From an uncultured Planctomycetaceae bacterium (GTDB lineage Bacteria > Planctomycetota > Planctomycetia > Planctomycetales > Planctomycetaceae), in assembly GCA_963815195.1 (NCBI GenBank), contig CAWFGE010000018.1:1-64000 (forward strand): a stretch of 64,000 nucleotides of DNA. Reading direction: 5' to 3'. Shown here piece by piece: positions 22 to 30,645 of the stretch (its first letter is position 1; each line of letters begins with the position of its first letter). Below the pieces are notes generated by a model. The model worked only from the letters and a program-made list of their open reading frames with translations, did not search any database and was not told where the DNA came from. The position numbers were made by a program, and so were the translations under genes.

Positions 22-3000
22 GTATTGCTCGCCTGGCGGCGTCATTGGAATCGGCACAGAAGTCGTGCGATGCGGTCTTGACCCCAACAAGGTGCTCAAC
101 GCCTGGCGGCGTCATTGGAATCGGCACCGGCGCTCCTCGCGGATCCGTCGGCCAACGAGTGCTCAACGCCTGGCGGCGTCATTGGAATCGGCACCGTGCT
201 CGACGCCGATCGTAGGCCGTCGATATACTAGTGCTCAACGCCTGGCGGCGTCATTGGAATCGGCACGCGACAACCGCGACGGCAACAGCGAGCAGACGTG
301 TGCTCAACGCCTGGCGGCGTCATTGGAATCGGCACTCGCGGCAATCGTTCAGCCGCATGCGCGTTGTGAGTGCTCAACGCCTGGCGGCGTCATTGGAATC
401 GGCACGCTGCTCAGTGAGTACCAGCGCACGGCCATCGGCTGTGCTCAACGCCTGGCGGCGTCATTGGAATCGGCACGGATCGCCGGTCTGCAGATTCGTC
501 CCGAGGTATAGTGCTCAACGCCTGGCGGCGTCATTGGAATCGGCACCTCGCACGTCGCTCACCTATCGCTGACGTCTGCCGGTGCTCAACGCCTGGCGGC
601 GTCATTGGAATCGGCACGCTACTGGATTTCCGATGCCGCGTAGCGGTCGTCCATGTGCTCAACGCCTGGCGGCGTCATTGGAATCGGCACATCGACAATT
701 GCCGACACAGTGTCGAACGCCGACAGATGTGCTCAACGCCTGGCGGCGTCATTGGAATCGGCACACGAAGCGGCTCGCGTTGGCCAGCGATGCCGTCAGG
801 TGCTCAACGCCTGGCGGCGTCATTGGAATCGGCACATTGATCACGGCTCTGCTCGGCTGAGCGGTTCAAGCATGTGCTCAACGCCTGGCGGCGTCATTGG
901 AATCGGCACGCAATCGTCGCCGGCGGTTCGTGCCGGATGTGATGTGCTCAACGCCTGGCGGCGTCATTGGAATCGGCACGACGACAATGACACATCGGGC
1001 ACGATCGCCATGAATGTGCTCAACGCCTGGCGGCGTCATTGGAATCGGCACGAAACCGCGGTGATCGAGCACCGCGACTTCGCAATGTGCTCAACGCCTG
1101 GCGGCGTCATTGGAATCGGCACCGAGACCGATCCTCGCGAGGTCGGTCGCGTCGGCCGGTGCTCAACGCCTGGCGGCGTCATTGGAATCGGCACGCGAGC
1201 TGGACACGTTGCTATTGACCAGCCGTGCGCGTGCTCAACGCCTGGCGGCGTCATTGGAATCGGCACGAACCGGATGCCAGCCTGCCAATTCGACAGGAAG
1301 TGCTCAACGCCTGGCGGCGTCATTGGAATCGGCACGCAGCACTGCTCTTTGCATCGCGCACGGATTTGACGTGTGCTCAACGCCTGGCGGCGTCATTGGA
1401 ATCGGCACCCATCCGTCCGGACGCCGTCGACTACCGCGCGTGTGCTCAACGCCTGGCGGCGTCATTGGAATCGGCACCGCGCGGATCGCCGATCGTGCGA
1501 CTCGACTGATCGATGTGCTCAACGCCTGGCGGCGTCATTGGAATCGGCACGCGAGTCGCGTGAATGCCGCGGCTCCGTCGCGTCATGTGCTCAACGCCTG
1601 GCGGCGTCATTGGAATCGGCACCGGAGACTCGATGCGGCCGAATCGGCGATGACATGTGCTCAACGCCTGGCGGCGTCATTGGAATCGGCACCGACGATC
1701 GCCTGCGGCGACCGGAGCCGTCGCATGTGCTCAACGCCTGGCGGCGTCATTGGAATCGGCACATCGCGAATCCATCGCGGCCTTGGCGCAGTGCGTCTGT
1801 GCTCAACGCCTGGCGGCGTCATTGGAATCGGCACTTCGCTCAGATGCCGCGGCGACGACCGATTGCGATGTGCTCAACGCCTGGCGGCGTCATTGGAATC
1901 GGCACCGACATCGCGTGCCGATCGCAGCGGCTCGGTCGACAGTGCTCAACGCCTGGCGGCGTCATTGGAATCGGCACGCATCGCGAACGTGCGGCATCGA
2001 TCGGCCGCACGATGTGCTCAACGCCTGGCGGCGTCATTGGAATCGGCACCGCGAGCGCATCGACGGTGCTCGGACTCTCGGACAGGTGCTCAACGCCTGG
2101 CGGCGTCATTGGAATCGGCACGAGATCGCTGCATCGTCTCGGCAGCGATTCCGCGATAGTGCTCAACGCCTGGCGGCGTCATTGGAATCGGCACGACTAC
2201 GATTCCGTACACCGTGGCAGCGAGCATTCGTGTGCTCAACGCCTGGCGGCGTCATTGGAATCGGCACTCGATCAAGTCGCATCGATCGATCAGTTCCACG
2301 GACAGTGCTCAACGCCTGGCGGCGTCATTGGAATCGGCACGGCAGATTTCGCGCGATCACGCTCGGCAGTCCGCGATGGTGCTCAACGCCTGGCGGCGTC
2401 ATTGGAATCGGCACCCGATTCGATCCGACTGCTCACGCTGCGCCAGTCATGTGCTCAACGCCTGGCGGCGTCATTGGAATCGGCACCTCGTGCTCGTGGC
2501 AGCGTCACGTCCGACTGACCGAGTGCTCAACGCCTGGCGGCGTCATTGGAATCGGCACGCGACGTCGCAGGCAGCGATTGCGGCCTTGATCAAGTGCTCA
2601 ACGCCTGGCGGCGTCATTGGAATCGGCACCTCGACGCTGACGCTCGACGAGCTCCGCGGCGCGATGTGCTCAACGCCTGGCGGCGTCATTGGAATCGGCA
2701 CACGACAGCGCTCGGCATCGCCTGCAGACGCGTCGCATGTGCTCAACGCCTGGCGGCGTCATTGGAATCGGCACCGCGATCGGACTGGCGATGTCGGCCG
2801 CAGCGATGCAGTGCTCAACGCCTGGCGGCGTCATTGGAATCGGCACGCGTTGGCGATCGCTACGAATGCTGCTGGTCGATGTGCTCAACGCCTGGCGGCG
2901 TCATTGGAATCGGCACCTCGTCCAGCGCCGCGGCATGCATCGCAGGCCGGCACGTGCTCAACGCCTGGCGGCGTCATTGGAATCGGCACAATCGGTTCGT

Positions 3001-7830: not shown

Positions 7831-7841
7831 AATCACTCCTA

Positions 7842-8615: not shown

Positions 8616-8618
8616 GGC

Positions 8619-9593: not shown

Positions 9594-9609
9594 GATTGAG
9601 GTCCGTTTA

Positions 9610-11283
9610 TCAAGAGTTAGCGGAGAGAGCCATGAGGGTGAGTGTTTTGACGTCCTCGGTGCGGTGTAAGAGGGCGTGACCGATTGACTTGAACTGCTCG
9701 ACGCTAAGAAACTGCTTCGCCGAAAACAGGGTTTGAGAGAAGTGGTCCACGAACGCTTGGTCGCGCCGCGAGCGAAATTCCAAAAACAGCGTTTCAGCGA
9801 CCGAACGCCGGTCGTCCTTGAATCCTTTTGGAACTCTTTCCCATTTGATCTTGTCACCCTCTTTGAAGTTGTCGATTTCGATTCCTGACTTCTTTTCCGC
9901 CCGTTCGGTGACGTACTGGCGGACCAATCGATGGATGATGTCCATCAACTTCGTGTCCTCGTCGGCGTGTTCGATTTCATCGGGATCGGTCATGGGAAAG
10001 ATCTCCAGCTTGAGGTATTTCCGCACATCTGCCCAAAACCACGGCAGGTTGTTGGGAGAATCGTCGGAGTGGACAAACAGTTCATGAGGCCAATTGCCGA
10101 AGGCATCAGCAAATGGCGCATACCAAGGGGTATCGTTCAACAATCCACGCAGAAGTCCGCTCCGAAATAGAGGGTTGCCAAATGGAGGCTTCTGTCCCGG
10201 TGCGCCCACGATGGCAAGGTAGCGATTGAGCAAACCCGGACGCGGTACAATACGGCCTGTCGAGACCAATTTGATGTTCTTCGCGACCTTCACCATGTGG
10301 AAAAACTCGATGCCACTAACTGTATAGGCGGATTCCAAGTCGCCCGATTTTGCAGCGCTGAGTTGGGCAAGATGCTCAAGGAATGACAGCGCCCCCTCAG
10401 CGGGAACGTCGATCACGGATTCCGCTGGACGGTAACCGCGCATGTCGCCTTTGAGACTGCCCAACACTCGCCTGTAGGCAGCCATGAACTGCGGGAGATT
10501 GGCGACCTCGGGAACGGCCAGCACATAGCCAACAAATTCCGAATTGCCGTCCGGCTCAATGCATTGCGGCACAAATACTAACGAAGTCAACATCCAAAAG
10601 TGCAGCAGAATTATCTGTTCGACGCGTCCTTTGTAGGGGATGTTCTCTGCTGTCGACGCTTGAGCGCCGAGCCAAAGTGAGCCCGCGACGGCACTTGTTT
10701 TGAACTGATTCTTCGCCCCGGCCTTCTCGGCATCCACGAGGTCTTTCCACACAGCAGGCCCCTCCTTGCAGGTTTTTCCGGCGGCGCATTGCTCGAATGG
10801 CTGACGGCTTTGCGGATTGCCGCGGGGGATTTCCCAAAGCATATTTCGCCACAATTTGAGCCATTCCTCTTTTCCATCGACGATGTACTGGCCGAGAAAA
10901 CGGCCAGAAGGTTGAATCACGGAATACACATACTTTTCGACGACCTTTCGCTTTCCTTTGACTTCTTCCGATATTTTGATCGTATCGACGAGTTCCGCAC
11001 CTTTCCACTTCGACTTCACCTGCACATTGACCGGTTCAGCGGCGTAGAGATCATCGAACATCGCATTCACAGTCTTTGGGGTAAACGTAACCCGCACTTT
11101 TGTGTGAGGTTCCAGCTCGTCGAACTCGAAGGTGGGAGTGGTTAAGCCACGGTTCCGCATGGACTCAATCTGCAGCAACAGACCTGCCAAACCCGCTTTG
11201 TGTTGAGCGCTTGGGAGATCGAACAAGTCATAGGTGATCGTCACCGTCGAAGGATCAGATTTCTTTGCTTTCGTTTTAGCCAT
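9610..11283 (-). CDS. cas8: Type I-MYXAN large subunit Cmx8 (Cas8)
   Basis: YDLFDLPSAQHKAGLAGLLL, WLKLWRNMLWEIPRG, SLWLGAQA, LLHFW; helical C-terminal Cas11-like part. Confidence 0.88.
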   Translation of the reverse strand: MAKTKAKKSDPSTVTITYDLFDLPSAQHKAGLAGLLLQIESMRNRGLTTPTFEFDELEPHTKVRVTFTPKTVNAMFDDLYAAEPVNVQVKSKWKGAELVDTIKISEEVKGKRKVVEKYVYSVIQPSGRFLGQYIVDGKEEWLKLWRNMLWEIPRGNPQSRQPFEQCAAGKTCKEGPAVWKDLVDAEKAGAKNQFKTSAVAGSLWLGAQASTAENIPYKGRVEQIILLHFWMLTSLVFVPQCIEPDGNSEFVGYVLAVPEVANLPQFMAAYRRVLGSLKGDMRGYRPAESVIDVPAEGALSFLEHLAQLSAAKSGDLESAYTVSGIEFFHMVKVAKNIKLVSTGRIVPRPGLLNRYLAIVGAPGQKPPFGNPLFRSGLLRGLLNDTPWYAPFADAFGNWPHELFVHSDDSPNNLPWFWADVRKYLKLEIFPMTDPDEIEHADEDTKLMDIIHRLVRQYVTERAEKKSGIEIDNFKEGDKIKWERVPKGFKDDRRSVAETLFLEFRSRRDQAFVDHFSQTLFSAKQFLSVEQFKSIGHALLHRTEDVKTLTLMALSANS

Positions 11284-13717
11284 TCGATTGTCGCCATGTG
11301 TTAAGAGGTTCGTCACAGTATCCAATTGCGGAGTGATAGTGGCCTGGTTCGGCTATACCAAGGTATGCAGGCAACTTCTTGTGCAGCGGGTTGTCTTTGT
11401 CGCGATACCGCGCATGTCGGCGAGGAATTGGAATAATCAGCCCTGGCCGAGTCGTGGCGTCACCGCTGATGTAAGCCCCGATATTGTCATCGTCCGGTAG
11501 CACACACGGTCGATTGTAGTCCGTCCCCTCCCGAAATGCCTCGCCGTCGTCGCCACGGCTTCCGACGGCGAACGCACCACTTATGAGAAATTGAGAATCT
11601 GGATCACCCTCTAGGGCCGGAACCGGTATGGAGGGGGAGTTCATGATTTCGTCCACTCTCGCCTGTGAGAGGTGGTCATATCCCTGCGCTTGCTGAACGA
11701 ACTCGTTTAAGCCGGCGAGGTCGTTGGTGGAATAGGGGCGATTTGCCTCTTCAGCGGAGTTACCGTCCGGTGTGTAAATCAAAACTTCGCCGGACTCAGT
11801 CAATGGCCGTGCACGGCGCTCGCGATTACAGCGACCCATGCGTTGCACGAACGCTGTCACTGGACAATGTTCGGTGACCAGTAAATCGACGTCGATGTCG
11901 AGACTCATCTCACAAACTTGCGTGGTGATTCCCAGTGCCGCTTGCTGGTTTCCCGGAGCCGGCTTCTTGAGGTGGTTCATTGTCTCCGCATGACGATCAA
12001 CGCGGTCGATGAGCCGAAAGCGGCTGTGATAACAAACGAGAGCGTGTCCTTCGCTAGTTGTCAACTGGTTCCCCGTGTCAGCCGCCGGATCGAAATGTGG
12101 CGCAAAGTCCTTCAGGATTTCGTGAGTCCGGCGTACCTGGTTGACAACCCAAAGCACCCGTTTGCCTTGACGAAGCGATTCCCAAACGCGCCCCGTTGCT
12201 TCGGCTCGATTGACGACGCGCGTCACGCGGTATCGAGGTAATTCAGCGATTTTCAGAAGGTCGTCGGGCCAATCGGGCGACGGCGATAGCTTGCATTCGT
12301 CAACGAGTTCTTTGCGGCGATTGGAGGGAAGCGTGGCCGTCATGCACAAGACTGGCACATCGAAGTTCTTAAGGAAACCCTTCAAGGCGGCAAACATATT
12401 GCGGTCGTAGCTGTGCACTTCGTCGATCACCACAATCGAGTCGGCCAGCACCGGCAGCATGCACATTGGGCTATAGGCGTATTGCATGAATGCGAGGAAT
12501 TGATCAACCGTGGCGGAAAATGCACGCCCCGGCCAGTATCCAAGCGAGAACAATCGTTGCTCGACTTCGTAGTTTCGATTGCCTCGGTCGTCGTTGGAGT
12601 CTTCAGGAGGATTCGCGAACATGCCATCGAGGTCAAATGCGCTTGTGCCGTGCATCAGCTTGGCATCGGCTTCGGGAGCCCAACTGACATAGTCTTTAAA
12701 GCCCTCACGTGCGGTGGCTCTCGTCGGATAGAGGAACAACACGTGTCGCGCCGGTCGTCGCACCAACTGAGCCGCAATCCACCGCCATGCCGCTAGCGTC
12801 TTGCCGCTACCGCAAGGTGCGAGGAGCAGTGCTCGAGCCGGTAAATGATCGCAGCCGAGTTGAAAGTCATTCCAGTCTTCCCACTTTCCTGCCGCCTTCA
12901 ATTCGCCGACACGTGGTTTGATGATGTCGTTCGCGATCCTTTCTTTGGTGAGCGGCACCGCCCGCGTCACGTTTTCACGGATCCAATCGATCACCCGGTG
13001 CCCCTGGCGCACCAGTCCCGAACCGGCGGCGTCTGCTGCAATGAGGGAAGCCCGAACGCCTACCAGTAGCCGAGAACGCCTGGAATCCGTCGCCAATTCA
13101 CTTTGGAGTCTCATCAGAGCGCCCCTGATGTTGTCTTGGTGATCATCGACATTGTTGGGATTGTTTCCAAATCTCCAAGTTTCCGGAAACATAGACGTGT
13201 CGAATTGAGGAAGGCCGACCTTAAGGCCGACGTCCGCCACCGCCTGGAAGTGGTCGTTGACAATCAAGCGAAAAATCTTTGCACCATCGGGCAACCTCCG
13301 GGCCAAGTCGGAAGACCGGCTACCCGCTTTCAAATGGTGCGTGAGAACGACGGACAACAAAAGGGGCACATCATAGCCGGCATGTTGCAGGGGTTGCGTG
13401 ACGCTCGGCAAACCAATCAAGAGCGTGCTGAGGTGTTCGTGGCGGATGGCTTGGGAACCCGTGCGGTGAAGCGCCGCTTGGAATGTGTTGTTCGCTTTAC
13501 CCCAATCGTGAAAGGCACACGATGCGAACAAATGGCGGCGGAATATCGGCCAAGTTTCTTCCGGCAATTGGAAGAATCGCAGCCATTGCGTTCCTAGGCG
13601 ACTCGGAGTCTTGTCTCCGAACAATTCCTGAGCAGCTTCAATCACATCGAGAGTGTGACCGAGAAGCGTCACAGGCTTCTGTCCCGCCTTCCGGCTTTTG
13701 GCGAGAATCTCATTCAT
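11276..13717 (-). CDS. cas3: Cas3 HD nuclease-helicase
   Basis: HDWGKAN HD domain, APCGSGKT Walker A, DEVH, MTAT, QRMGRCNR. Confidence 0.97.
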   Translation of the reverse strand: MNEILAKSRKAGQKPVTLLGHTLDVIEAAQELFGDKTPSRLGTQWLRFFQLPEETWPIFRRHLFASCAFHDWGKANNTFQAALHRTGSQAIRHEHLSTLLIGLPSVTQPLQHAGYDVPLLLSVVLTHHLKAGSRSSDLARRLPDGAKIFRLIVNDHFQAVADVGLKVGLPQFDTSMFPETWRFGNNPNNVDDHQDNIRGALMRLQSELATDSRRSRLLVGVRASLIAADAAGSGLVRQGHRVIDWIRENVTRAVPLTKERIANDIIKPRVGELKAAGKWEDWNDFQLGCDHLPARALLLAPCGSGKTLAAWRWIAAQLVRRPARHVLFLYPTRATAREGFKDYVSWAPEADAKLMHGTSAFDLDGMFANPPEDSNDDRGNRNYEVEQRLFSLGYWPGRAFSATVDQFLAFMQYAYSPMCMLPVLADSIVVIDEVHSYDRNMFAALKGFLKNFDVPVLCMTATLPSNRRKELVDECKLSPSPDWPDDLLKIAELPRYRVTRVVNRAEATGRVWESLRQGKRVLWVVNQVRRTHEILKDFAPHFDPAADTGNQLTTSEGHALVCYHSRFRLIDRVDRHAETMNHLKKPAPGNQQAALGITTQVCEMSLDIDVDLLVTEHCPVTAFVQRMGRCNRERRARPLTESGEVLIYTPDGNSAEEANRPYSTNDLAGLNEFVQQAQGYDHLSQARVDEIMNSPSIPVPALEGDPDSQFLISGAFAVGSRGDDGEAFREGTDYNRPCVLPDDDNIGAYISGDATTRPGLIIPIPRRHARYRDKDNPLHKKLPAYLGIAEPGHYHSAIGYCDEPLNTWRQSNG

Positions 13718-14376
13718 AACGTGTTCCTCGATTCGCTTGGATCAAACGGCACAAATACGCCGCAGCCCATGTGTCTTCGGCCGCCTAATCCTTGTTCCTG
13801 CAGGGTCAGCGACTCCTCCGCGGTGAGGGCCTCGATGATGACCTCGTAGCCCACGATGCTCGCGCCTTTGATGTCCATCGCCCGGCGTTGGGGTTCACCC
13901 TGTTTGGGGCCGGTGGGAATCGGCGGGATGCCCAGCACGGTTTCCTCCGAACTCCCCATCTCGCCGAGTTGTTTGCGGGCCGCGGCCAGAAAGATTTCCG
14001 GGGTCAGTTCCTCGGCCTTAACGTCCTTGACCTTGATGCAGACCAATCGGCTTCGCAGCGTCGTCGCCGGCGTGAGGGCAAAAACCTGAGGCACACCCAC
14101 GCGAAGGCTGGTCTCGCCCACGTGCAACGATTGGCCCGCGAGCGGCAAGAGTTCTGCGATGCGATCAGCCGGCGTACGGATCGTGAGTTTCGACCAGGGC
14201 GTGAGCACCATTTGATCTTCGCCGACTTTGCGGCCGCGGACCGGATGAATTGCAAAGCCGTTCTCCTGGTGCACGGCCGGCAACACCCGCGAGACGGCCC
14301 CAAACAAGGCATACCCGTGGTCCGAGGCCATCGGTTTCTGTGCCGTCACCGCGAAGGCTAAATCAACATGGGACAT
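13714..14376 (-). CDS. cas6: Cas6 (MYXAN/Cmx6 type)
   Basis: VDLAF...DHGYALFGAVS and C-terminal Gly-rich loop GLGGRRHMGCGVF. Confidence 0.95.
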   Translation of the reverse strand: MSHVDLAFAVTAQKPMASDHGYALFGAVSRVLPAVHQENGFAIHPVRGRKVGEDQMVLTPWSKLTIRTPADRIAELLPLAGQSLHVGETSLRVGVPQVFALTPATTLRSRLVCIKVKDVKAEELTPEIFLAAARKQLGEMGSSEETVLGIPPIPTGPKQGEPQRRAMDIKGASIVGYEVIIEALTAEESLTLQEQGLGGRRHMGCGVFVPFDPSESRNTL

Positions 14377-14386: not shown

Positions 14387-14914
14387 CTAATTCTCGGCTG
14401 CTCTGGCTTTCAACAAGTGACAAATCGACTGCCAGTCTCGACCGACTGTGCGCTCGCTGACTTTGAGTCGATTGGCGATTTCGCGATTTGTCATCCCCCG
14501 CTTTTTCAAGATGACAACTTTCTTTTGGCGAAGCGGTAGCATGCGGCAGAGCGAGTTTAATCGCCAACGCGCCGAGGTGTTCTTTGAAGGGACAAGATAG
14601 ACCTTTTCAAGCATTTCCTGATTCACGAGTTGTGCTTCACGTCCCTGTTGAACCGAATTTCGACGCGCCATCGAATAGAGTTTTCGCTTGGCAACGAATA
14701 AGATAAAACGGTAGATGTCATCTGTCTTTGCGGATGCAAGAATGCGAGACGCACTTTCGCTGTTGGCAACGTTGAGGTAAATGGAAGCGAGCAATTCATC
14801 AGCATCACCAAGTTGGCACGCGCGCTGCAGATATTGTGCTTTCTTGGTCAAAAGGAATAGCCGAATGGCATTGGCTACGTGGTTCCGAACATTTTCGTTC
14901 CAAGAAGTGGGCAT
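14387..14914 (-). CDS. ECF-sigma-like / sigma-70 region 4 HTH protein (175 aa)
   Basis: AGGAGA RBS and ATG at 14914; C-terminal LPLRQKKVVILKKRGMTNREIANRLKVSERTVGRDW resembles region 4; stop is 10 nt before cas6. Confidence 0.7.
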   Translation of the reverse strand: MPTSWNENVRNHVANAIRLFLLTKKAQYLQRACQLGDADELLASIYLNVANSESASRILASAKTDDIYRFILFVAKRKLYSMARRNSVQQGREAQLVNQEMLEKVYLVPSKNTSARWRLNSLCRMLPLRQKKVVILKKRGMTNREIANRLKVSERTVGRDWQSICHLLKARAAEN

Positions 14915-14955
14915 TTGGAGTCTCCTTCTGCGTTTTTCAGCGGGGTTGCTGATCG

Positions 14956-14978
14956 AAGCACTTGCTGCTACCATAATA
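14956..14978 (-). promoter_or_regulatory. Putative cas operon -10 box (TATTAT) overlapping an ATG PAM and a 16-nt protospacer for the mini-array spacer
   Basis: Minus strand reads TATTATG-GTAGCAGCAAGTGCTT; 15/16 identity to the 5' end of spacer 15077-15110. Confidence 0.75.
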
Positions 14979-15040
14979 CATCGCAGTTGGATCGAGGGAA
15001 GTGACATAGAAATTGACCGAAATTTCTTTCGATCCGCGAT

Positions 15041-15146
15041 GTATTCGCTGTAGAGACGCCTCCGGGCGTTGAGCACGTAGCTGCAAGTGCTTGCTGTAGT
15101 TCGAGTTGCAGCCAAACGTAACCAGACGCCGTTAGGCGAAAAGAGA
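15041..15146 (+). ncRNA. crRNA-like regulatory mini-array (pseudo-repeat, 34-nt spacer, pseudo-repeat); CreR/CreA-like
   Basis: 15041-15076 matches the last 22 nt of the transcribed repeat at 20/22. 15111-15146 keeps GACGCCGnnAGGCG at the same register. Confidence 0.85.
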
Positions 15147-15162
15147 CGAGGCATTTCATTTC

Positions 15163-16164
15163 TCACACATCCGCCTCCAGTTTTTCGTGGTTTTCCAGGA
15201 TGGCCAAGCACTCGTCCCGGAGTTCCGTTCGTAAGTCGTCGGGTTCCAATACGACGGCGTGCTTGCCGAAGGATTGGATAAACGACTTAAGCTCCACGAA
15301 GCTGGCGACTTCCACTTCGAAGAGGATTGAGCCGTCTTTTTGCGGCGTGAGCTTCTGGCTGGGATGCCATTCGTATTCCTGAAGGAACCGAGCGACGGGC
15401 CGGCCGAAGCGGACAACCGCTCTCCGCTTGGGGCCGCCGTCCAGATAAACGCCGAAAGCATCCGCGAAGTATGCATCCAGATCGAAATGCTTGGGTTCGT
15501 TGAAGGGCGGGCCCGAGTTATCGACCTCGCTGATGCGGTTGATCTTGTAGTGCCGGATCTCGCGGTCGTCCGAGGAGAAGGCGACCAGGTACAGCGCCTG
15601 CTTGTGATACGCGATGCCGTACGGATGCACTTCGTGCTCGACCGGTTCCGTGGCCCGGAGGGATTGGTATAGAATGATGGTGATCTTGCGATCTTCGATG
15701 GCGACCATCAGGTCGTCGATGATTTCGGCGTGCTCCGCGTAGTCGGAATGGCCGAATCGCGAGCGGTACATGATGCGCGCCAGTTTCTCCAGGTACTCAA
15801 GTGCCACGTCTCCAAATGATGCGCGGATTTTTTCGAACGCCGATTGCGAGCCCTCCCAGAACACCGTTCCCGCGAGAGGCCCAAGGAATTCTCGACCCAG
15901 ATAAAGGGCAGCCGCTTCTTCCAGCGTAAAATGCCGTGCCGGGATGGAGGTGGCGTTATCGATTCGCCAGCGCTGGCGAAGATGAGCTTCTTTTTCCGGT
16001 TCGGCCAGAAAGCCGACCAATCGCAATTGGTCCAAGTCCCGGCGGATTGTTTTCAGAGACACGCCGAACTCCTCCGCCAGTTCGGTGACTGTGGCACCGT
16101 TCCGCCGCGCGGCCAGCGTGTTCAACAATCGCCATTGCCGGGTAATCTGTTTGGTGTCCGCCAT
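15163..16164 (-). CDS. wHTH-WYL-WCX transcriptional regulator (YafY/PafBC-like)
   Basis: N-terminal HTH (ELAEEFGVSLKTIRRDL), WYL domain (VHPYGIAYHKQALYLVAF...RHYKINRI) and WCX-like C-terminus. Confidence 0.92.
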   Translation of the reverse strand: MADTKQITRQWRLLNTLAARRNGATVTELAEEFGVSLKTIRRDLDQLRLVGFLAEPEKEAHLRQRWRIDNATSIPARHFTLEEAAALYLGREFLGPLAGTVFWEGSQSAFEKIRASFGDVALEYLEKLARIMYRSRFGHSDYAEHAEIIDDLMVAIEDRKITIILYQSLRATEPVEHEVHPYGIAYHKQALYLVAFSSDDREIRHYKINRISEVDNSGPPFNEPKHFDLDAYFADAFGVYLDGGPKRRAVVRFGRPVARFLQEYEWHPSQKLTPQKDGSILFEVEVASFVELKSFIQSFGKHAVVLEPDDLRTELRDECLAILENHEKLEADV

Positions 16165-17877: not shown

Positions 17878-20800
17878 TCAGCGTCGTCGCAACGCACGGC
17901 CAGTTAGGAGAGGTTCCAGTCCCACTTCCGGGAGACGAGAAAATACGACGTCCAGTTGTTCTGTCTCCTTTTGGCTGGCTTTTGTCGACAATTTTGCTGG
18001 GGTCTCGTTTAAAGAGCGAATACTTTTCTTCAGCTTACCTGCCGATTCGATTAAGAGACTCGCGTCATCCGTGGAAATCTGCCCCGTTTTCACAAGGACC
18101 TCGACACGATGGATGAACGCGTTCGTTTGTTTGTCGGCAGCATTTTCCCTCCCGCCAATAATGCTGGTCATTACGGCCCCCAACACTGACTTGAGAGAGA
18201 CGGCATCACCGTTCGTGAAACCACCTTGTGCGGCGAGAAGATTGACATCAGCCACGAGAACTCCAACCTGTTGTTCAGCCGAAAGGACGGTAAGCGTAAA
18301 CGTCTTGGCTGAGGAAGCGGCCCCCCCTTCATCAACTAGGATGACCTGTACGGTCGCCGTTCCGCTGGTGTCGGCCGCGATCTCGTAAGTCAAGGTGCCA
18401 CTGGCGGGATCAATGAATGGCTCCGCGGCAAACGCCAGATTTCCGGTTGTCCCAAGCACGGTGGTTTCGAAGGTGAGCGCCTGGCCTTGTTCATCGGTTG
18501 CGGTCGCGGGGCCGGGGGCGATGTTGGTCGCGAAGTTCGCGACGGTCTGCGGTCCCGCGTCTTCGGAGGAAGCCGGTGGATTGCCGGCAAGGGTGAACTC
18601 CGGGGGATCATTCACGGTGAGAACGGTAATTGTAAAGGTGTGAGTTGTCGATTCGGCCCCTTCTTCATCGCTCAGGATGACCGAAATGGTAGCCGTTCCG
18701 CTGGAGTCGGGCGTCGTGGAATAGGTCAACGTGCCCGACGGATCAATGAACGGAGCCGCGGCGAATGCGAGATTTCCGGTTGTCCCAAGCACGGTGGTTT
18801 CGAAGGTGAGCGTCTGGCCTTGTTCATCGGTTGCGGTTGCGGGGCCGGGGGCAATGTTGGTTGCGAAGTTCGCGACGGTCTGTGGTCCCGAGTCTTCTGT
18901 GGATACGGGTGGGTTGCCGGCAAGGGTGAATTCCGGGGGATCATTCACGGCGAGAACGGTAATTGTAAAGGTGCGGCAGTTGTCGATTCGGCACCTTCTT
19001 CGTCGCGCAGGATCACGGAAACGGTTGCCGTCCCGTTGGAGTTTGGCAACGTGGCATAGGTCAACGCGCCCGTGGACGGGTCAATGAACGGTTCCGCGGC
19101 GAACGCGAGATTTCCGGTTGTCCCAAGCACGGTGGTTACGAAGGTGAGCATCTGGCCTTGTTCATCGGTCGCGGTCGTGGGTCCGGGGGCGATGTTGGTT
19201 GCGAAGTTCGTCACGGTCTGCGGTCCCGAGTCCTCCATGGAATTCGGATCGCTTGCCAAGGTAAAGACAGGCGGATCGTTTACGGGGGTCACGTGGATAT
19301 TCACCGTCGCCGTGTCTCGTAACACGAAATCAACGAAGGTCTCCTTTCCGAAATCGATGTTGCCCTTAGGCAAGAGTCGTGCCCGGTCGAAGCTGAACGA
19401 CAACGGCTCCGTTTCGCCGGGGACCGTCACGATCTGCTGGAGCCTTTCATAATCCAATTCAAAGGAGATGATGTTCGTTCCATCGTCGTCGGTGTCGATC
19501 TCCAGCGAGACCACAACGACATTTTCCAGTATCCATTCCTCCAAAAGTCCGGAGGGCTCCAGTCGGCTGAGGGTCATCTGCGGAAGGATGGTTCCCGTGG
19601 CAACCGCATGGAACAGGCCGGGAGCGGATTTGCTCATCGGGGTGGTCAGGTGGAGACCACCCAGCTTTGGGTTCGACTGTCCGTTCGTGCCGATGATTGC
19701 ATTGCCCTCGATGAACCAGGAGCTCGCCTCGACGGCGATCTCACCGGAGGGCGTGACCAGGATCGTGGGTTCCTGTTCGCGGTCGAAGTCCTCTTCGCCG
19801 AAACCGGGGTCGGGGTCGATTGGCTCATTCTTTGTTTGGTCGTAACCGAACATCAAAACGTCCGCTTCGTCTTCACCGGTTTTGGGGGGAATCGTTACCT
19901 TCTGCTCGAGCGTTTTATAGTGTAATTCGAAGGAGATGAGTTGCGTGCCGTCGATTGCGGTGTCGACCTTCATTGAGACGATTTGCACTTCCATCAGTTG
20001 CCACTCCGTCAGCAGTCCCGAGGGCTCCCGCTGAAATAGAGTCATCTTTGACCCAAAAATTCCGGTGGCAACCGCGTAGAACAGGCCGGGTGAGGCTGCG
20101 CTTATCCGGGTACTCAAACGAAGATTCCCAAACTGCGGTTTCGAAGCACTATCGCCACTACTGCCGATCGTGGTGCTGTTTTGAAGGTCCCAGAAATTCC
20201 CCTCAACGGTGATCGCGCCCGAGTCGGCGACGAGCATCAAGGGAGTCTCGTCGGGGGGAAGATTCTTCACGCCAAAGCTGGGCTTGTCGCCAAACGTCTG
20301 CTCAATATTCCGGTCGTACCCGGTCGATATCGGATCGCCTGGGCCGGGCCGGGTCACGGTCTGCTCGATCGTTTCATAATCCAATTCAAAGGAGATGATA
20401 CTCGTACCGTCGATTTCGGTGTCGATATTCAGCGAGACCACAACGACATGTTCCAGCGTCCATTCCGTCAGTAGTCCAGACGGGTCCTGTTGACTGAGCG
20501 TCATCTGCGGGATGGGGGTTCCCGTGGCGAGAGCATAGAACAGGCCGGGCGAGGATTCCAGCATCCGGGTCGTCAGGTGGAAACGGCCAAACTGTGGGAA
20601 CGAGGGGTTGCCCCCGTCGATGTTTGTGTCCTTCTCGATGAACCAGGAGCTCTCCTCGATGGCGATCTCGCCGGAGGATGTGACCAGGATCGTGGAGACC
20701 TGTTCGTGGTCGAAGTCCTCTCCGCCGAAGCCGGCGTCGGAGCTCATTGGGGCATTCGTTGCTATGTTGTAATCGAACCTGAACTCCGTGCGAGCACCAA

Positions 20801-22514
20801 ACGGATCGAGACGCGTTACCTTCTGCGCAAGTCTTCCAAAGTCTCCAAAGTCCAATTCAAAGGAGACGAGTTGCGTGCCGTCGACTTCGGTTTCGACCTT
20901 CAGCGAGAGCACGAGGACATCATTCAGCGTCCACTCCGTCAGTCGTCCGAAGGATTCCTGCTGGTACAGCATCATATCCTGGCCAGAACTGGTGAGGATC
21001 TGGTAGAGCAGGCCGGGCGAGGTTTCACTCATCCGCGTGCTCAAGCGGAGCTTAAATTCCGGTTTCGAAGCGCCGTTGTCGCCGATGGAGCCGTTGTTTT
21101 GAATGTTCCAGGAGATCTCCTCGATGGCGATCTCGCCGGTGAGAGTGGCGAGAATCAAGGGATGTTCGCCGACTCCGTCTACGTTGCCAAGGGGGGGCTT
21201 TTCGGTGCCGGGCAAATTCTTCTGAATACTCCGGTCGTAACCGGTCGACAGGGAATTCCCGCCGCCCGGGGCGGTTACGGTCTGCAGGACCTTTTGATAT
21301 TCCAATTCAAAGGAGATGATGCTCGTGCCATCGTCTTCGGTTTCGAAATCCAGCGAGGTCACATAGACATTTTCCAGCAGCCATTCCGTCAGTTGTCCAG
21401 AGGGCTCCTGTTGACTGAGGGTCATCTGCGGAATGGGGGTTCCCGTGGCGAGAGCGTAGAACAGACCGGGCGAGGCTTTACTCATTCGGGTGGTCAGATG
21501 GAAACTGTCAAACTGTGGGGCAGGACGATCGACGCCGTTGGCGTCTCTCACAATGTCTCTCTCGACGGACCAGGAACTGTTCTCCACGGCGATCTCGCCG
21601 GAGGGGGTGACCAGGATCAATGGGACCTGTTCGTGGTCGAAGTCCTCTCCACCGAAGCCGGGATCATTGCCGATTGACTGATACTTTGTTTGGTCGTAAC
21701 CGAACGTCAAAACGTCCGCTTCGTCATCACTGGTTTTTCCGGGAATTGTCAGGGTATGCGTCAGCTTGTCATACGACAACTCAAGGGAGATCAGGGTCGT
21801 GCCGTCGTCTTCGCTGGCGAAATTCGCGGAGACCACCTGGACTTTCTCCAAATTCCATTCTGTCAGCCGTCCGGAGGGTTCCAGGTGTCGCAGGGTCATG
21901 TTCTCAATGAGTGAATCTTGGGCCGCCAGTGCGACCGCGGAGGACAAACCAGGGGCGGCTTCGCTCATTCGCGTGGTCAAATGGAGATTCTCCAACGTTG
22001 GTAGTGACACGTTCGGACCGGAGGGAGGGCTGAATGTGAGGCTGGTATGAGTGTTCCAGGAAAATCCGCTAATGGGGATCTCACCCGTCGGTGTCTGGAG
22101 AATCGTCGAGAACGCGGGATTGCGTTCCACGGAGTATGTGAACGAATCCGTCCCACTGAAATCGGCGTTGGGTGAGTAGCGGAACTCTCCAGGGGCGACT
22201 TCAACCAGTGTGCCCTGTCCGGGGTTCGTACGCGAAATCTCCGTAACGCCGACCTCAAGATCATCGTTGGCCAGTAGATCGTTAATCGAAAAGTTGACGC
22301 TTTGATCTTCGTTTGTTGTCAGTGAAACGTCCCGGGCATCGAACGTGGGAATCAGGGAGGAGAGCAAGGCACGATCTTCAAGGAATTCGATTGCCGTCGG
22401 AAACGATAGGTTGAGATTTCGCCTCTGATAACGTCGCGTTGTCCGGGCAAAATCGGCTTGGCCGCGGATTCGAGCGAAAAGAGCAGCGAGTGGATTCCTG
22501 CGCAGATTGGACAT
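17878..22514 (-). CDS. Large secreted protein: planctomycete export motif, Ig-like domain with six inserted Hcp-like domains, three more Ig-like repeats, helical (FIMAH-like) C-terminus; frameshift at ~18972
   Basis: RBS and ATG at 22514; basic N-terminus with EFLEDRALLS (LExRxLL motif); six ~150-aa repeats; VNDPP cadherin-like repeats continue in ORF 17878..18948. Confidence 0.85.
18290..19280 (-). repeat. Three ~330-bp near-identical tandem DNA repeats encoding Ig/cadherin-like domains
   Basis: agatttccggttgtcccaagcacggtggtt and flanking sequence recur at ~18437, ~18770 and ~19108. Confidence 0.9.
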
Positions 22515-22681
22515 AACAAACCTCTTGGAAAATTGATTCACGGGTACGCCTCCGGGAAAAATAGGAACGAAGAGATCATTACCAGTCACCGCGTGGGAAT
22601 GAGTGACCGCCCCGCATCCTGCCGCTTTCACTCATGGCGATCGTGGAACCGTTCGGTGTCTGACCAAGCTCTCCCAAACGT

Positions 22682-23594: not shown

Positions 23595-26500
23595 ATGTCG
23601 AATGACCCGAAGCGACTACAAGAGCTGTTCTTACGACTGCTGGAGGTTCCATCTGAGGATCGGTCGGACGCCTTGGAGCGGGAATGCGGGTCGGACGCGG
23701 AGCTTCGGCAACAAGTCGAGGCTCTGCTGAAAGCGCACGAGGAACCGGATAGCTATCTCGATCAACCCGGTGATGAGGTCGCGGCGACCATGGTCCCGCC
23801 TGCGGAAGAGCCGGATGCCGAGACATCATCAGGAGAATCAGGCCGTCGCCAGAATTGGGATTTGCCACCCACGCAGGAGTATGAATCGTCCCCGGAGTCG
23901 GAATTGGGAGAATTCATCGCGGGGCGTTACACGCTGAAAGAAAAAATCGGCGAAGGCGGAATGGGGGAGGTCTGGGTCGCGAAACAATCCGAGCCGCTCA
24001 AGCGGAAGGTCGCGCTCAAGTTGATCAAGACGGGGATGGATTCCAAAGCCGTACTGGCCCGCTTCGAACAGGAACGCCAAGCCCTGGCGATGATGGATCA
24101 CCCGAACATCGCCCGCGTTTTGGATGGGGGAATTACGGGAACGGGCCACCCATTTTTCGTGATGGAATTGGTCAATGGTCTGCCCTTGATTCAATTCTGT
24201 GATGAGGCAACGCTATCGGTCAATGAGCGACTGGATCTGTTCGTCTTGATCTGCCAAGCGGTTCAGCACGCGCATCAGAAGGGAATTGTGCATCGCGATT
24301 TAAAGCCTGCCAACATCCTGGTGACGATCATTGACGGCCGACCAGTGCCTAAAGTGATTGATTTTGGCGTGGCGAAGGCGACTAGCGGCAAATTGACCGA
24401 CGAGTCCTTGTCCACTCAGTTCGGGGCCATCGTGGGCACATTGGAATACATGTCGCCAGAGCAGGCGGGTTACACCGGCGATGACGTCGACACCCGGGCG
24501 GACATCTATTCGCTAGGAGTCATTCTTTACGAATTGCTCACCGGATTGCGGCCGATCGATGCGGCCCGTCTCAAGCAAGCAGCCTTCACGGAAATGATTC
24601 GGATCATTCGCGAGGTAGAACCATCGAAGCCCTCGACGCGACTCTCAACGGAGAAGTCGCTGCCCTCGCTGGCCGCCCTCCGCAAGATCGACCCCCGCAA
24701 ACTGACCACACTACTAAGCGGCGAGTTGGACTGGATCGTGATGAAATGTTTGGAGAAGCAGCGGGACCGCCGCTATGAAACGGCTAACGGTCTGCTTCGC
24801 GACATCCAGCGGTATCTGGCCGATGAGCCAGTCGAAGCCCGCCCCCCCAGTCCAGCGTACCGGATGAGAAAGTTCGTCAGTCGAAACAAAGGACCGGTGA
24901 TCACAGCCAGTTTAGTTCTGCTGACTTTGCTGGGAGGCATCATCGGGACGTCGCTGGGCTGGATTGAGGCGAAGCGTCAGGAAGGCTTCGCGCTAGACCG
25001 GGCCGAGGGGCAGCGACTGGCTAGGAACCAAGCCGAAAAGCAACAACTGATCGCGGAGAATGCTCTACAAGCCGAACAAATCGCAAAAAGGAATGCATTC
25101 AATGCCGTACGGGCTGCGGAGGCACAGGCAAAGGCACTTATGCTAGAAAAGGAGCTGGCCAAACGGGATAAACAGATCGGCCAGGCCGTGAAAGATTTCT
25201 TGCTGAACAAGTTGCTCAGGAAGGCGGATGCACCGCTGAACGATGGCATAGAAGAGGTCTCTAACGAGAAACAGAACCTGACGATCGGCGAACTTTTGGA
25301 TCAAGCGGCGACCGTATTCGACGAGAAAAGAATCCAGAAGGAATATCCTGGCCAGCCCTATGTTCAGGCGGAAATTCTGAATCTGATTGGGATCGCCTAC
25401 GCTCGAATCGGAAAGCACGATCGTTCCATCGAGTTCCTAAATTGGGCGCTGGAGTCATTTGAACGCGGCCCAGACAATACGGATACCCTTGCCAAAATTC
25501 TCGACTGCGCAAACGACCTTGTGGAGAGTTGTACTGAAGCGGGACAAACGGACGCCGTCCTTCCACGACTCGAGGAAACGCTCAAGCTGGTCAAGAACAA
25601 ACATTCTTTCCGTTATCTGGATGCGGAGAAGCGAGACTTGGCCCAGCGGCTCCTAAAGACCACATCGAAATTATCCGGGCAAATTCGAGGCCCCAATCAT
25701 CCAAACACGCTCAACAACATGAGCGACCTCGCGGAGACGTATCGAATGGCGGGCCGGTTGGACTTGGCCTTGCCCCTAGAGGACGCATTGTTGTCCGCCG
25801 ACCCCCAATTGTATAAGGAGGAATTGCATTGGTTGGACGGTTTACTGGTGGACGCAATTCCGTGGCATCGGCTTGATCCAGACAAAGTGTCTGCAACAGA
25901 GGGCGGTGCGATATTGAAAGAGCAAAAGGACTTCTCGGTTTTGGCGAGCGGACCACATATCGCTGGAGACATCTACACGATTGAGGGGACTCCCAGTCTT
26001 ACGGAAATTCGGGCGATTCGTTTGGAGGTTCTTCCTCATTCTTCACTGCCAAAATCTGGACCAGGCCGGAATCGCGCAGGCAATTTTCTTTTAGCCAAAT
26101 TTCGCGTTTTCACGGAGTCTGAAATTGGGCAGATCATTGAACTACCGATTGCTAATGCTTGGGCCAGTTATACCTATAACCAACATGGTGGAGGGAGTGT
26201 TTTGGGGACTATCGATGATAAAGATCAGCGATTTTGGCACATCTTCTCCAAACCGGGAGAACGCCACTTTGCGGTCTTCGTACTGAGGAATGTCTTGCGA
26301 CTTTCACCGGGGCAACGCCTGATCGTTAAGTGTGAGCACAAACGCGAAAGTTGTCTTGGCCGATTCCGTCTTTCCATCACTGATGAACCAGACGCTATCG
26401 AACAAATCAAACGTGACATGATCCGCGCGAGGAAGCTAGCTGTTGTGGTTTTGAAAGTTTGGTTGAATCAAGAGAAGGCTGACACAACCATCGTCCAACA

Positions 26501-27023
26501 GGGACTGAATGTTGCCAAAGCTACCGAGAATCTTTTTCTTCAGGAATGGGCTGTTCGAGCATGTTGCCTCAAGCCCATCGAGGGCAAAAGGCAACTGGCA
26601 GCGGTTTTGGAACTGGCTCGCTCAGTCGCATCAAGAGCCAAGAAGAATGGTGAATATGATTCCGGGTTTCAATTGGGATTGGGCATGGCGGAATACCGCA
26701 ACCATGCCTATGCCGCAGCCGAAAACGCTTTGCTGACGGCCGAAAAATTTCCTGAGGAAGAAAATCCTCACCTCGTACTGACTTCGCGATTCTACCGGGC
26801 CATGAGCCTGTATCGGCAAGGCAAATTGAAAAACGCCCGTGAACTATTCCAGTCCACCGCGAAGCAGATGAAGCCCCTCCCCGAAAAGCCAAGGAACCCA
26901 TCGGCCAACCAAGCGAACATCAACGATGTGGTCGTCTGGCTGGCCTACAAAGAGGCGAAGGCCCTGATTCAATTTTCCAAACCCGAAAAGCCAGCCATCG
27001 CACAGAAGTCGCGGACTGATTAG
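23595..27023 (+). CDS. Hanks-type Ser/Thr kinase with TM segment, TPR-like repeats and a beta-sandwich domain
   Basis: GEGGMGEV, VALK, HRDLKPAN, DFG, YMSPE; hydrophobic segment after the kinase domain. Confidence 0.96.
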   Translation: MSNDPKRLQELFLRLLEVPSEDRSDALERECGSDAELRQQVEALLKAHEEPDSYLDQPGDEVAATMVPPAEEPDAETSSGESGRRQNWDLPPTQEYESSPESELGEFIAGRYTLKEKIGEGGMGEVWVAKQSEPLKRKVALKLIKTGMDSKAVLARFEQERQALAMMDHPNIARVLDGGITGTGHPFFVMELVNGLPLIQFCDEATLSVNERLDLFVLICQAVQHAHQKGIVHRDLKPANILVTIIDGRPVPKVIDFGVAKATSGKLTDESLSTQFGAIVGTLEYMSPEQAGYTGDDVDTRADIYSLGVILYELLTGLRPIDAARLKQAAFTEMIRIIREVEPSKPSTRLSTEKSLPSLAALRKIDPRKLTTLLSGELDWIVMKCLEKQRDRRYETANGLLRDIQRYLADEPVEARPPSPAYRMRKFVSRNKGPVITASLVLLTLLGGIIGTSLGWIEAKRQEGFALDRAEGQRLARNQAEKQQLIAENALQAEQIAKRNAFNAVRAAEAQAKALMLEKELAKRDKQIGQAVKDFLLNKLLRKADAPLNDGIEEVSNEKQNLTIGELLDQAATVFDEKRIQKEYPGQPYVQAEILNLIGIAYARIGKHDRSIEFLNWALESFERGPDNTDTLAKILDCANDLVESCTEAGQTDAVLPRLEETLKLVKNKHSFRYLDAEKRDLAQRLLKTTSKLSGQIRGPNHPNTLNNMSDLAETYRMAGRLDLALPLEDALLSADPQLYKEELHWLDGLLVDAIPWHRLDPDKVSATEGGAILKEQKDFSVLASGPHIAGDIYTIEGTPSLTEIRAIRLEVLPHSSLPKSGPGRNRAGNFLLAKFRVFTESEIGQIIELPIANAWASYTYNQHGGGSVLGTIDDKDQRFWHIFSKPGERHFAVFVLRNVLRLSPGQRLIVKCEHKRESCLGRFRLSITDEPDAIEQIKRDMIRARKLAVVVLKVWLNQEKADTTIVQQGLNVAKATENLFLQEWAVRACCLKPIEGKRQLAAVLELARSVASRAKKNGEYDSGFQLGLGMAEYRNHAYAAAENALLTAEKFPEEENPHLVLTSRFYRAMSLYRQGKLKNARELFQSTAKQMKPLPEKPRNPSANQANINDVVVWLAYKEAKALIQFSKPEKPAIAQKSRTD

Positions 27024-28100: not shown

Positions 28101-29474
28101 TGTGGTGGACCCCGAAAACTGGACAGCCCAATAAGGTAGAATTTGCGATGTTCATTTGTCGCATTGGGAGGTTCCGATTATGACCAGGAAGCGTCGAGTT
28201 TTGGGGTCCGCGTTCAAAGCCAAGGTGGCGTTGGCGGCGGTCAAAGGGGATAGGACGACGGCTCAGTTGGCGTCGGAATTTGGCGTCCACACGAGCCAAG
28301 TCACGGCTTGGAAAAAGCAGTTGTTGTCGGGAGCCACTGAGTTGTTCACGGATGGCCGACGTAAGCGATCCGACGATCAATCGGCCAATGAGCAAGAACT
28401 CTATGAACAAATCGGCCGGCTGAAAATGGAAGTCGAGTGGCTCAAAAAAAAGTCGCTGACGCTGGATTAAGCCACGAGGTTTTGCGGGCATGGATCGAAC
28501 CGAAGCATTCCACGTTGAGCGTGTCGCGTCAGTGCGATCTGTTGGGATTGGCGCGGAGCAGTTGGTACTACGAACCTGGCGGCGAGACCGCGGAAAATTT
28601 GGAACTGATGCGGCGAATCGACGAGGAATACACGCGGCATCCGTTTTATGGTTCTCGCAAGATGGCCGAGTTGTTCGGCGTGAATCGCAAGCGAGTGCAG
28701 CGGCTGATGCGACAGATGGGAATCGAAGCGGTTGGACCGAAACGCCGCACGACCAAACCGGGGCGCGGACACAAGATTTACCCTTATTTACTGCGGAATG
28801 TGGAGGTTCTCCGGCCCAACCAGGTGTGGTCGAGCGACATCACTTACATCCCGCTTCGCCACGGGTTTTTGTATCTCGTGGCAGTGATGGACTGGTTCAG
28901 TCGCTACGTGTTGAGTTGGCGATTGTCGAACACGTTGGAGGGGAGTTTTTGCTTGGAGGCGTTGGACGAAGCCTTGTCGATCTCGCGGCCGGAGGTCTTC
29001 AACAGCGACCAGGGCAGCCAATTCACGGCGATCAAGTTCACCGAGCGATTGGAACGATTGAATGTCGCGATCAGTATGGATGGAAAAGGACGGTGCTTGG
29101 ACAACGTATTCATCGAGCGGCTGTGGCGGAGCGTGAAATACGAAGAGGTTTACTTGAAGGATTACACGGATGGTTGGGAGGCCGAGAGAAGCCTGCAGAG
29201 TTACTTTGAGTTCTATTGTGAGGAACGGATTCATCAGTCGCTGGGTTATCAAACGCCGGCGATGATCTACGAAGGAAAAGATTGAAGCCTGCACAAAGTG
29301 ATGGACGAAAAATGAAAACAAGTTTCGCGCAAAACCGGGAGGGAACTGGTGAGGTCTCGTCCCGGGCCCCTTGTCATCGGCGGCAGACGACGAGGCCTAT
29401 GAGGGGCCTCGTCTGCCGCTGACTCACACCACTAAACAACCCCGTTTGCTGTCCAAAGAATGGGGTCCACCTCA
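28101..29474 (+). mobile_element. IS3-family insertion sequence
   Basis: Terminal IRs TGTGGTGGACCCC...TGGACAGC and reverse-complement TGAGGTGGACCCC...TGGACAGC; orfA/orfB overlap at an A-run; no flanking direct repeat seen. Confidence 0.93.
28180..29285 (+). CDS. IS3 transposase OrfAB (programmed -1 frameshift at the A-run, 28444-28451)
   Basis: OrfA HTH (FKAKVAL...WKK...WLKKK); OrfB DDE (WSSDITY, NSDQGSQF, DNVFIERLWRSVKYE). Confidence 0.93.
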
Positions 29475-29963
29475 ATGACCCCGGCGAACTTTCTGTTCAT
29501 AGGCGGCTCGGGCACGTTGCCGCAATAGTCCCAGTTCAAATTCCGCCAAACTGCCCTTGAGCCCCAACAGCAATCGATCATTGAGTTGGCGCGGATCGTA
29601 GACGCCGTCTTCATCGATGATTAACGTCTCCGTGATCGCACAGAGATCAATCAAGTGATGCCAGTCCCGGTTGTTTCGCGCCAAACGCGAAGCCTCCAAA
29701 GCCAGAACGGCCCCCGCTTCGCCTTCGCAGACCGCCGTGAGCAATCTTGCGAATCCCGGGCGGTCTTGAAGTCCGCTGCCCGAGCGGCCGAGATCATCAT
29801 CAATCACCGTAACCTTGCGGAACTTGAGCTGCCTGGCGTAATCCGCCAGAGCATATTGCCGTTTTTGACCTTCGCGGTGCTCCCGCACTTGGTGATCACT
29901 GGATTGCCGGACATAGACAAAAGCGGTTCGCTCTCGGTGTTCAGATCGAATCTTCTCGTTCAT
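29472..29963 (-). pseudogene. Large serine recombinase #2, catalytic domain only, truncated by IS3
   Basis: VYVRQSS, EASRLARN, NDRLLLGLKG; the ORF ends at the IS3 right end. Confidence 0.88.
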
Positions 29964-30642: not shown

Positions 30643-30645
30643 GAC

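Follow-up and report, generated by a model that had tools for sequence, protein, structure and literature searches.

A single gene of an uncultured Planctomycetaceae bacterium encodes six Hcp domains in one polypeptide chain, set as a block between the two parts of an immunoglobulin (Ig)-like domain profile. The gene lies on the minus strand of a 64,000-nt stretch of DNA (assembly GCA_963815195.1, contig CAWFGE010000018.1, positions 1–64,000), which we refer to throughout as the window. We consider it probable that the product is a surface or secreted adhesin-like protein whose Hcp domains form a closed single-chain ring that does not depend on a type VI secretion system (T6SS) and likely acts as a head for binding or assembly. 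Both Hcp and the tail-tube proteins of phages are regarded as parts of injection machines that need to oligomerise; if our reading is true, the tube fold has a second life outside injection.

Six Hcp domains in one chain

The minus-strand open reading frame (ORF) at 18945..22631 is translated without stop codons. It extends up to a GTG at 22631 (1228 aa); the likely start of the gene is the ATG at 22514, which has aagagg ahead of it and yields a product of 1189 aa that is identical to the database protein P0003. The parts of the gene and of its apparent continuation are as follows.

18945..22514, minus strand: gene of the six-Hcp putative surface protein, 1189 aa from ATG 22514
22356..22388, minus strand: N-terminal motif EFLEDRALLSS behind an Arg-rich stretch, fitting the consensus RRLxxExLExRxLLA by eye
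22119..22349, minus strand: first part of the Ig-like tandem-95/Big_9/cadherin-like domain (strands to ...GTDSFTYSV); NF012211 positions 1–69 of 98, Big_9 positions 7–75 of 89
21633..22118, minus strand: Hcp-like repeat 1 (type A); Pfam, repeat profile and alignment
21171..21632, minus strand: Hcp-like repeat 2 (type B); Pfam, repeat profile and alignment
20706..21170, minus strand: Hcp-like repeat 3 (type A); Pfam, repeat profile and alignment
20253..20705, minus strand: Hcp-like repeat 4 (type B); Pfam, repeat profile and alignment
19779..20252, minus strand: Hcp-like repeat 5 (type A); Pfam, repeat profile and alignment
19332..19778, minus strand: Hcp-like repeat 6 (type B), its tail with the inter-repeat linker pattern; the same evidence plus a partial TIGR03344 match at aa 991–1045
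19263..19331, minus strand: last strand of the interrupted Ig-like domain, DTATVNIHVTPVNDPP; NF012211 positions 76–93 of 98 (E 0.003), Cadherin_4 positions 1–16
18948..19262, minus strand: following tandem-95 repeat, shortened by the frame change; profile, and a 333-nt DNA tandem repeat at 18318–19232
18970..18977, minus strand: approximate frameshift site, where the repeat goes on in another frame; frame comparison
17878..18948, minus strand: downstream ORF of 356 aa, a probable continuation of the protein with two tandem-95 repeats and a FIMAH domain; domain scan

The protein contains exactly six repeats of about 155 aa each, in which four motif anchors occur six times apiece at a spacing of 151–162 aa; their alignment has 28 invariant columns and a mean column identity of 60%. 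The Pfam family T6SS_HCP (PF05638) matches the protein in six stretches with E 1.3e-46 and 158.5 bits (cut-off 23.5), so that all six repeats are assigned to the family above its curated cut-off. When a profile built from the six repeats was used in a six-frame scan of the genome, it recovered each copy at E 1e-64 to 3e-73, far above chance. The T6SS-specific NCBIfam model of TssD, TIGR03344, gave 30.1 bits, which is under its cut-off of 58.9. The initial annotation of this DNA, made from the letters and their translations, had placed six repeat starts from about 22110 to about 19770, and our boundaries (22118, 21632, 21170, 20705, 20252 and 19778, with the end of the block at 19332) fall within about 10 nt of them. 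It had also recognised the motif order of Hcp/TssD, which is borne out both by the six PF05638 stretches and by fold matches to Hcp1 chains, described below.

One feature can be added to that description. Repeats 2, 4 and 6 are 54–63% identical to one another and repeats 1, 3 and 5 are 39–49% identical, and the A-to-B and B-to-A linkers are each of a conserved type of their own. Because the odd and even repeats form two identity groups, the block is, at the level of sequence, an (A-B)x3 array, and it looks like a two-domain unit that was triplicated. Across the family this odd/even alternation is weak, being found in 38 of the 66 six-domain proteins.

Predicted ring geometry

AlphaFold2 was applied to aa 95–1228 of the open frame (1134 aa) with a 36-row alignment of six-domain homologs. 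The resulting model has a mean predicted local distance difference test score (pLDDT) of 77.9, with most of the Hcp block above 85, and a predicted template modelling score (pTM) of 0.73. About a fifth of the modelled residues (~21%) are low-confidence flanks, and a pTM of this size despite them therefore suggests that the six domains were placed as one rigid body. A model of the homolog P0011, which consists of an export motif and six domains only (1048 aa), reached pLDDT 82.8 and pTM 0.83. Hcp1 chains superposed on the window model with Z 10–12.7 and a root-mean-square deviation (rmsd) of 1.5–2.9 Å over 113–144 aligned residues (4w64_B, Z 12.7, rmsd 1.9 Å, 135 aligned; 1y12_B, Z 12.3), and in the P0011 model Z rose to 17.1; in both models, single Hcp chains matched each domain. 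Foldseek matched the window model to Hcp with prob 1.00 and TMt 0.73–0.77. The top Foldseek ranks were taken by DDB1, Rhs and cullin chains (TM 0.04–0.09), which are spurious long beta-rich alignments, and we treat the Hcp rows alone as meaningful.

The placement of the domains relative to one another was read from matches to proteins that carry two tube domains. Six tail-tube entries of about 300–375 residues aligned to the window model over 220–243 residues with rmsd 3.1–3.9 Å and a model range of 79..975–982, which begins in repeat 1 and finishes in repeat 6.

8xan_A against repeats 1 and 6: Z 8.4, rmsd 3.7 Å, 227 aligned
9ioz_A against repeats 1 and 6: Z 7.6
7qg9_G against repeats 1 and 6: Z 7.5
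8hqz_L against repeats 1 and 6: Z 7.4
8ed0_A (P74-26) against repeats 1 and 6: Z 7.2, 243 aligned
9iny_A (T5) against repeats 1 and 6: Z 6.7

In the P0011 model, 8ed0_A (Z 8.3, 258 aligned) and 8xan_A lay over the adjacent repeats 5–6, and VgrG-like hubs aligned on repeats 2–3, 3–4 and 5–6 of the window model. Each chain of the tail-tube targets has two tube domains, which sit next to each other in a ring of pseudo-six-fold symmetry. Since the targets align to neighbouring repeats and also to repeats 1 and 6, the predicted geometry is that of a closed ring, with consecutive repeats arranged as adjacent subunits of a ring would be and repeat 6 next to repeat 1. The closed pseudo-hexameric ring that the initial annotation had put forward in place of loose beads thus gains support from the models, through the pTM of 0.73 and the alignments that pair repeat 1 with repeat 6.

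The array interrupts an Ig-like domain

A block that splits a cadherin-like/Big_9 repeat between its last two strands had been proposed previously, and the profile matches on the two sides of the array agree with this. The 77 aa ahead of the block (aa 95–171) match positions 1–69 of the 98 positions of NF012211 (tand_rpt_95) with E 5.7e-13, and the 35 aa behind it match positions 76–93 with E 0.003; the whole-protein score of 58.5 is under the cut-off of this model, 90. The match to Pfam Big_9 (PF17963; 46 bits, cut-off 23.6) ends at position 75 of 89, right at the insertion point. An insert of about 930 residues stands in place of roughly six profile positions, equivalent to the hairpin between the last two strands, and this is an extreme case of domain insertion into one Ig hairpin. 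The tail of repeat 6 retains the inter-repeat linker pattern, and the Ig domain would thus occupy the place of a seventh linker, from repeat 6 to repeat 1. For the putative re-formed Ig domain we rely on the profile matches rather than on the model, because the Ig parts of the latter have pLDDT <60.

The flanks of all 66 six-domain proteins were inspected by eye. In P0024, P0025, P0034, P0045 and P0147, which have cadherin-like flanks, the block lies between '...GxDxFxYxx' and a strand like 'xxVxVxV'. In at least six proteins with another Ig type (P0026, P0046, P0057, P0067, P0078 and P0107), it lies between '...GTGYTLVA...' and '...SxPFxV'. That two unrelated Ig types have the block in their last hairpin is in keeping with an insert that has its two ends next to each other.

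Homologs and the number six

When the six-repeat profile was run with HMMER on 1.84 billion representative proteins, 374 matched at E<=0.001. Domains were counted with an iterated profile in the best 150 of the 374 matches and in the paralog P0002, 151 proteins in all, of which 46 have at least 30 aa on either side of the array and form the fully flanked set.

1 domain: 32 of 151 proteins; 2 of 46 flanked
2 domains: 19 of 151 proteins; 4 of 46 flanked
3 domains: 16 of 151 proteins; 6 of 46 flanked
4 domains: 10 of 151 proteins; 2 of 46 flanked
5 domains: 9 of 151 proteins (8 after one further round); 1 of 46 flanked
6 domains: 65 of 151 proteins (66 after one further round); 31 of 46 flanked
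More than 6 domains: 0 of 151 proteins; 0 of 46 flanked

Six is both the mode and the maximum of the domain count among the 151 proteins. The initial annotation had held that arbitrary repeat numbers in homologs would speak against a ring; the numbers are not arbitrary, with six domains in 66 of 151 proteins and more than six in none (15 of the 46 flanked proteins have fewer). Many of the proteins with two to five domains start or stop within a domain and are therefore fragments. For 153 of the 396 repeats in the 66 six-domain proteins, the best match in another protein was the repeat of equal ordinal position, where chance would give about 66; part of the family has therefore apparently inherited the array as a six-unit whole.

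The same genome encodes a second and very different six-Hcp protein, P0002 (3189 aa; contig C21, 258769–268359, minus strand), in which the array lies at the C-terminal end and is preceded by PD40 propeller and LamG regions and a right-handed beta-helix region. With a Pfam E of 3e-68, its repeats are closer to canonical Hcp than are the repeats of the window protein, to which they bear only a distant likeness. A word-based homolog search at near lengths returned the window protein itself only, and related-locus searches gave no locus with P0008 and one Gemmataceae locus with P0156. No description of multi-Hcp chains was found in the portions of the literature that the search covered. Seven homologs (P0035, P0043, P0051, P0060, P0061, P0103 and P0129) have a common segment straight after the predicted ring (…FxTPPxxxGIG…FFTDEQE…), behind which lie GEVED or PPC domains.

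Absence of T6SS genes

The lack of a T6SS link, noted earlier for the window, extends to the whole host genome, which measures 8.87 Mb and is 94.6% complete. All 10 of its PF05638 matches fall in two frames, of 1228 and 3197 aa, so that the genome as assembled has no free-standing Hcp of ~160 aa, and VipB/TssC (PF05943), TssF (PF05947) and Phage_GPD/VgrG (PF05954) have no match in it. Likewise, the Gemmataceae genome with the homolog P0156 has six Hcp matches, all in one frame of 1523 aa; neither VipB nor a free Hcp was found in that genome, and no T6SS gene lies within 10 kb to either side of the P0156 locus. Single-domain Hcp genes are present in 44 of 200 further genomes sampled from the phylum. 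In samples of 201 and 401 phylum genomes (with two candidates per genome scored in the latter) the array was seen in the host genome only; it is rare in the sampled genomes, which does not imply that it is absent elsewhere.

Automatic naming has labelled P0153 and P0156 (1000–1500 aa) 'type VI secretion system tube protein Hcp' or 'Hcp family effector'. The naming of array proteins as T6SS Hcp is an annotation error that could mislead censuses of T6SS, causing a system to be inferred where there is none.

Putative export and surface context

At the N-terminus of the protein, an Arg-rich stretch is followed by EFLEDRALLSS, which is consistent with the planctomycete LExRxLL export route suggested in the initial annotation. 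According to the main text of PMC8567305, the consensus RRLxxExLExRxLLA (Studholme et al. 2004) is presumably a signal that directs export to the planctomycete cell surface; in Tuwongella immobilis that text reports 52 motif proteins, of which 20 were detected, 8 of those solely in the SDS envelope fraction. By eye, RRYQRRNLNLSFPTAIEFLEDRALLSS agrees with the consensus as quoted there. The corresponding Pfam HMM, PF07595, gave no match to aa 38–94 at E<=10, and it matches 2 of 36 homologs. Of the 66 six-domain proteins, 41 match a loose regular expression for the export motif in the part upstream of the array, against 2 of the 32 single-domain proteins.

In the 64 members scanned, the array is fused to Ig-like, cadherin, PKD, Calx-beta, MBG, YDG, FIMAH, RTX and dockerin domains, along with PPC, GEVED, FG-GAP, LamG and beta-helix; by their domain assignments all are adhesin-like, and no enzyme or toxin domain was found in these 64 members. 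The motif and the fused domains together point to a surface location.

A frameshift behind the array in the assembly

The reading frame ends at 18945, and the same repeat unit goes on in another frame, the shift lying near 18970–18977 within a 333-nt tandem repeat of 86% identity. The FIMAH domain of the downstream ORF at 17878–18948 is also found at the C-terminus of the homologs P0092 and P0018. Because that ORF continues the repeats and ends in FIMAH, as in these homologs, the original unbroken protein was probably about 1530 aa long. Among public reads, one soil-metagenome run held 54% of the sampled words as contigs, with the bins at 18784–19111, which include the frameshift, uncovered; no RNA run was listed with the locus.

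Proposed explanation and alternatives

We propose that one chain closes its six Hcp domains into a pseudo-hexameric ring of three A-B pairs, which would loop out of the last hairpin of the Ig domain and be held by that domain as by a clasp joining repeat 6 to repeat 1. Operating outside any T6SS, the ring would be a rigid part of the protein with the shape of a doughnut, close to where the Ig-repeat stalk has its N-terminal end. Its most likely job would be that of a binding or assembly head, with the lumen or the faces holding a partner or stacking with other rings. The initial annotation had suggested a cargo cage, a decoy or an adhesin, and the ring might also act as an anchor. A further step, which we regard as possible but doubtful, is that planctomycetes and their relatives domesticated the tube protein of a contractile tail as a free, single-chain extracellular ring, dispensing with sheath, baseplate and spike and using it on the cell surface as a cargo cage or as a stackable unit of a hitherto unrecognised extracellular tube or fibre.

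Several observations weigh against our proposal. Ring closure was read from pTM and from aligned ranges that mark only the first and last aligned residue, the tail-tube Z values of 7–8 are middling, and AlphaFold, which was trained on Hcp hexamers, may have imposed a ring. The Ig flanks, which would form the clasp, have pLDDT 30–59 in the model. Among the fully flanked homologs, the 15 of 46 noted above have one to five domains; comparison of the flanks of ten proteins with two to five domains by hhalign revealed no hidden Hcp copies (the positive control gave 99% probability), and the shorter arrays therefore exist as called. Finally, the frameshift splits the gene in the assembly, and the full protein may not be made in this organism.

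One alternative is an arrangement of beads on a string, in which independent Hcp domains would act as spacers or adhesive units of a fibrillar adhesin with no ring closure. Such an arrangement accords with homologs that have two, three or four copies and intact-looking flanks, and with fused domains that are typical of fibrillar adhesins. Spacer repeats, however, normally vary freely in number, whereas here none of 151 proteins exceeds six and six is the mode; moreover, independent domains would not reach pTM values of 0.73 and 0.83, and an insert can sit in an Ig hairpin only if its ends meet. We judge it quite improbable. Somewhat better placed, if still unlikely in our estimation, is a polymer rather than a binding head, with the rings of many molecules stacked head-to-tail into the core of an extracellular tube or fibre and the Ig, RTX and dockerin arms projecting sideways. 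Hcp hexamers stack in the T6SS tube, the models keep the Hcp fold and the ring-neighbour geometry, and the ring is the sole module common to otherwise varied surface proteins; yet a tube would not need the position-specific divergence of the six repeats or one-sided arms.

We give hardly any credence to a lasting role in secretion, with the protein as an evolved Hcp serving to cap or load an ordinary tube and the T6SS encoded elsewhere or acquired from neighbours. In databases, homologs do go by the name 'type VI secretion system tube protein Hcp', and single-domain Hcp genes are present in the 44 of 200 sampled phylum genomes mentioned above. Against this stand the absence of VipB, TssF, VgrG-type Phage_GPD and free Hcp from the host genome and of VipB from the Gemmataceae genome, the TIGR03344 score of 30.1 versus the cut-off of 58.9, and the misfit of an export-type motif and adhesin-like architectures of 1000–3000 aa with passage through a sheath-driven tube. 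It also seems very unlikely that the gene is decaying and that its ring module is a remnant which no longer has a function in the host. The frame change at ~18970–18977, within a repeat unit, would shorten the protein, but the 1189-aa part retains all six repeats intact and the homologs are intact. The break sits in the 86%-identical 333-nt tandem repeat, and metagenome assemblies often err in such repeats.

Comparison with known systems

By profile and by fold (Z 10–17 over the window and P0011 models), the repeats are the same domain as Hcp/TssD (PF05638; PDB 1Y12, 4W64 and 5XHH), and the predicted geometry of neighbours is alike. Hcp/TssD assembles from six separate subunits of ~160 aa, whereas here six copies are in one chain. 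Unlike Hcp/TssD, the window protein has an export-type motif and an adhesin-like stalk, is encoded in a genome without T6SS genes and falls under the TIGR03344 cut-off. Two-domain tail-tube chains form trimers, giving pseudo-six-fold rings. The two-domain tail tubes of siphophages (T5, 9INY; P74-26, 8ED0; 8XAN) and hubs of the VgrG/gp27 type superpose on repeat pairs of the models, and the (A-B)x3 pattern mirrors the 3x2 design of such tubes. In these tubes and hubs, however, three chains make up part of a tail or spike, while in the window protein the whole predicted ring would be one chain (1x6) with no injection device. No tail genes are near the six-Hcp gene, whose neighbours are CRISPR-Cas genes, regulators and a kinase. 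The likeness to tail-tube proteins is one of predicted fold and geometry only. If the ring is real, it would be the 1x6 end of a series of fusions in which Hcp is 6x1 and the T5 and P74-26 tubes and VgrG are 3x2, and would offer a ready asymmetric ring with six different addressable subunits for studies of cargo binding and stacking and as a nanoscaffold.

Planctomycete surface proteins (PF07595), as described for Tuwongella in the main text of PMC8567305, have an N-terminal motif of a type that the window protein fits by eye, and the same kind of giant architectures rich in Ig and cadherin domains. Hcp occurs 0 times in that main text; the supplements may list such proteins. The Hcp-ET 'evolved Hcp' effectors (HCP1-toxin fusions are mentioned in PMC3482391) resemble the window protein in that Hcp is fused to other domains. 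They differ in having one Hcp, a C-terminal toxin and T6SS dependence, as opposed to six Hcp domains and, in the 64 members scanned, no toxin domain.

Neighbouring genes

At the start of the window, a CRISPR array (88–5497) of about 75 repeat-spacer units with a period of ~72 nt stands beside a type I-B CRISPR-Cas operon (5716–14376, minus strand), which encodes a Cas4-Cas1 fusion of 706 aa, Cas8b, Cas3 (HD and helicase), Cas6 and two ORFs without a Pfam match. Between the cas operon and the Hcp-array gene (14387–16164, minus strand) are a WYL/WCX/HTH regulator and an ECF-type sigma factor; defence loci are often under the control of WYL regulators. Divergent from the Hcp-array gene is a gene for a Ser/Thr protein kinase of 1142 aa with TPR repeats (23595–27023, plus strand). 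Farther along, Pfam recognises nothing at E<=0.001 in two long ORFs of 507 aa (36399–37922, minus strand) and 942 aa (38603–41431, minus strand). The part of the window at 29472–35057 looks like a mobile-element region, since it encodes a Mu-type transposase/integrase of 536 aa and two serine recombinases of 163 and 691 aa.

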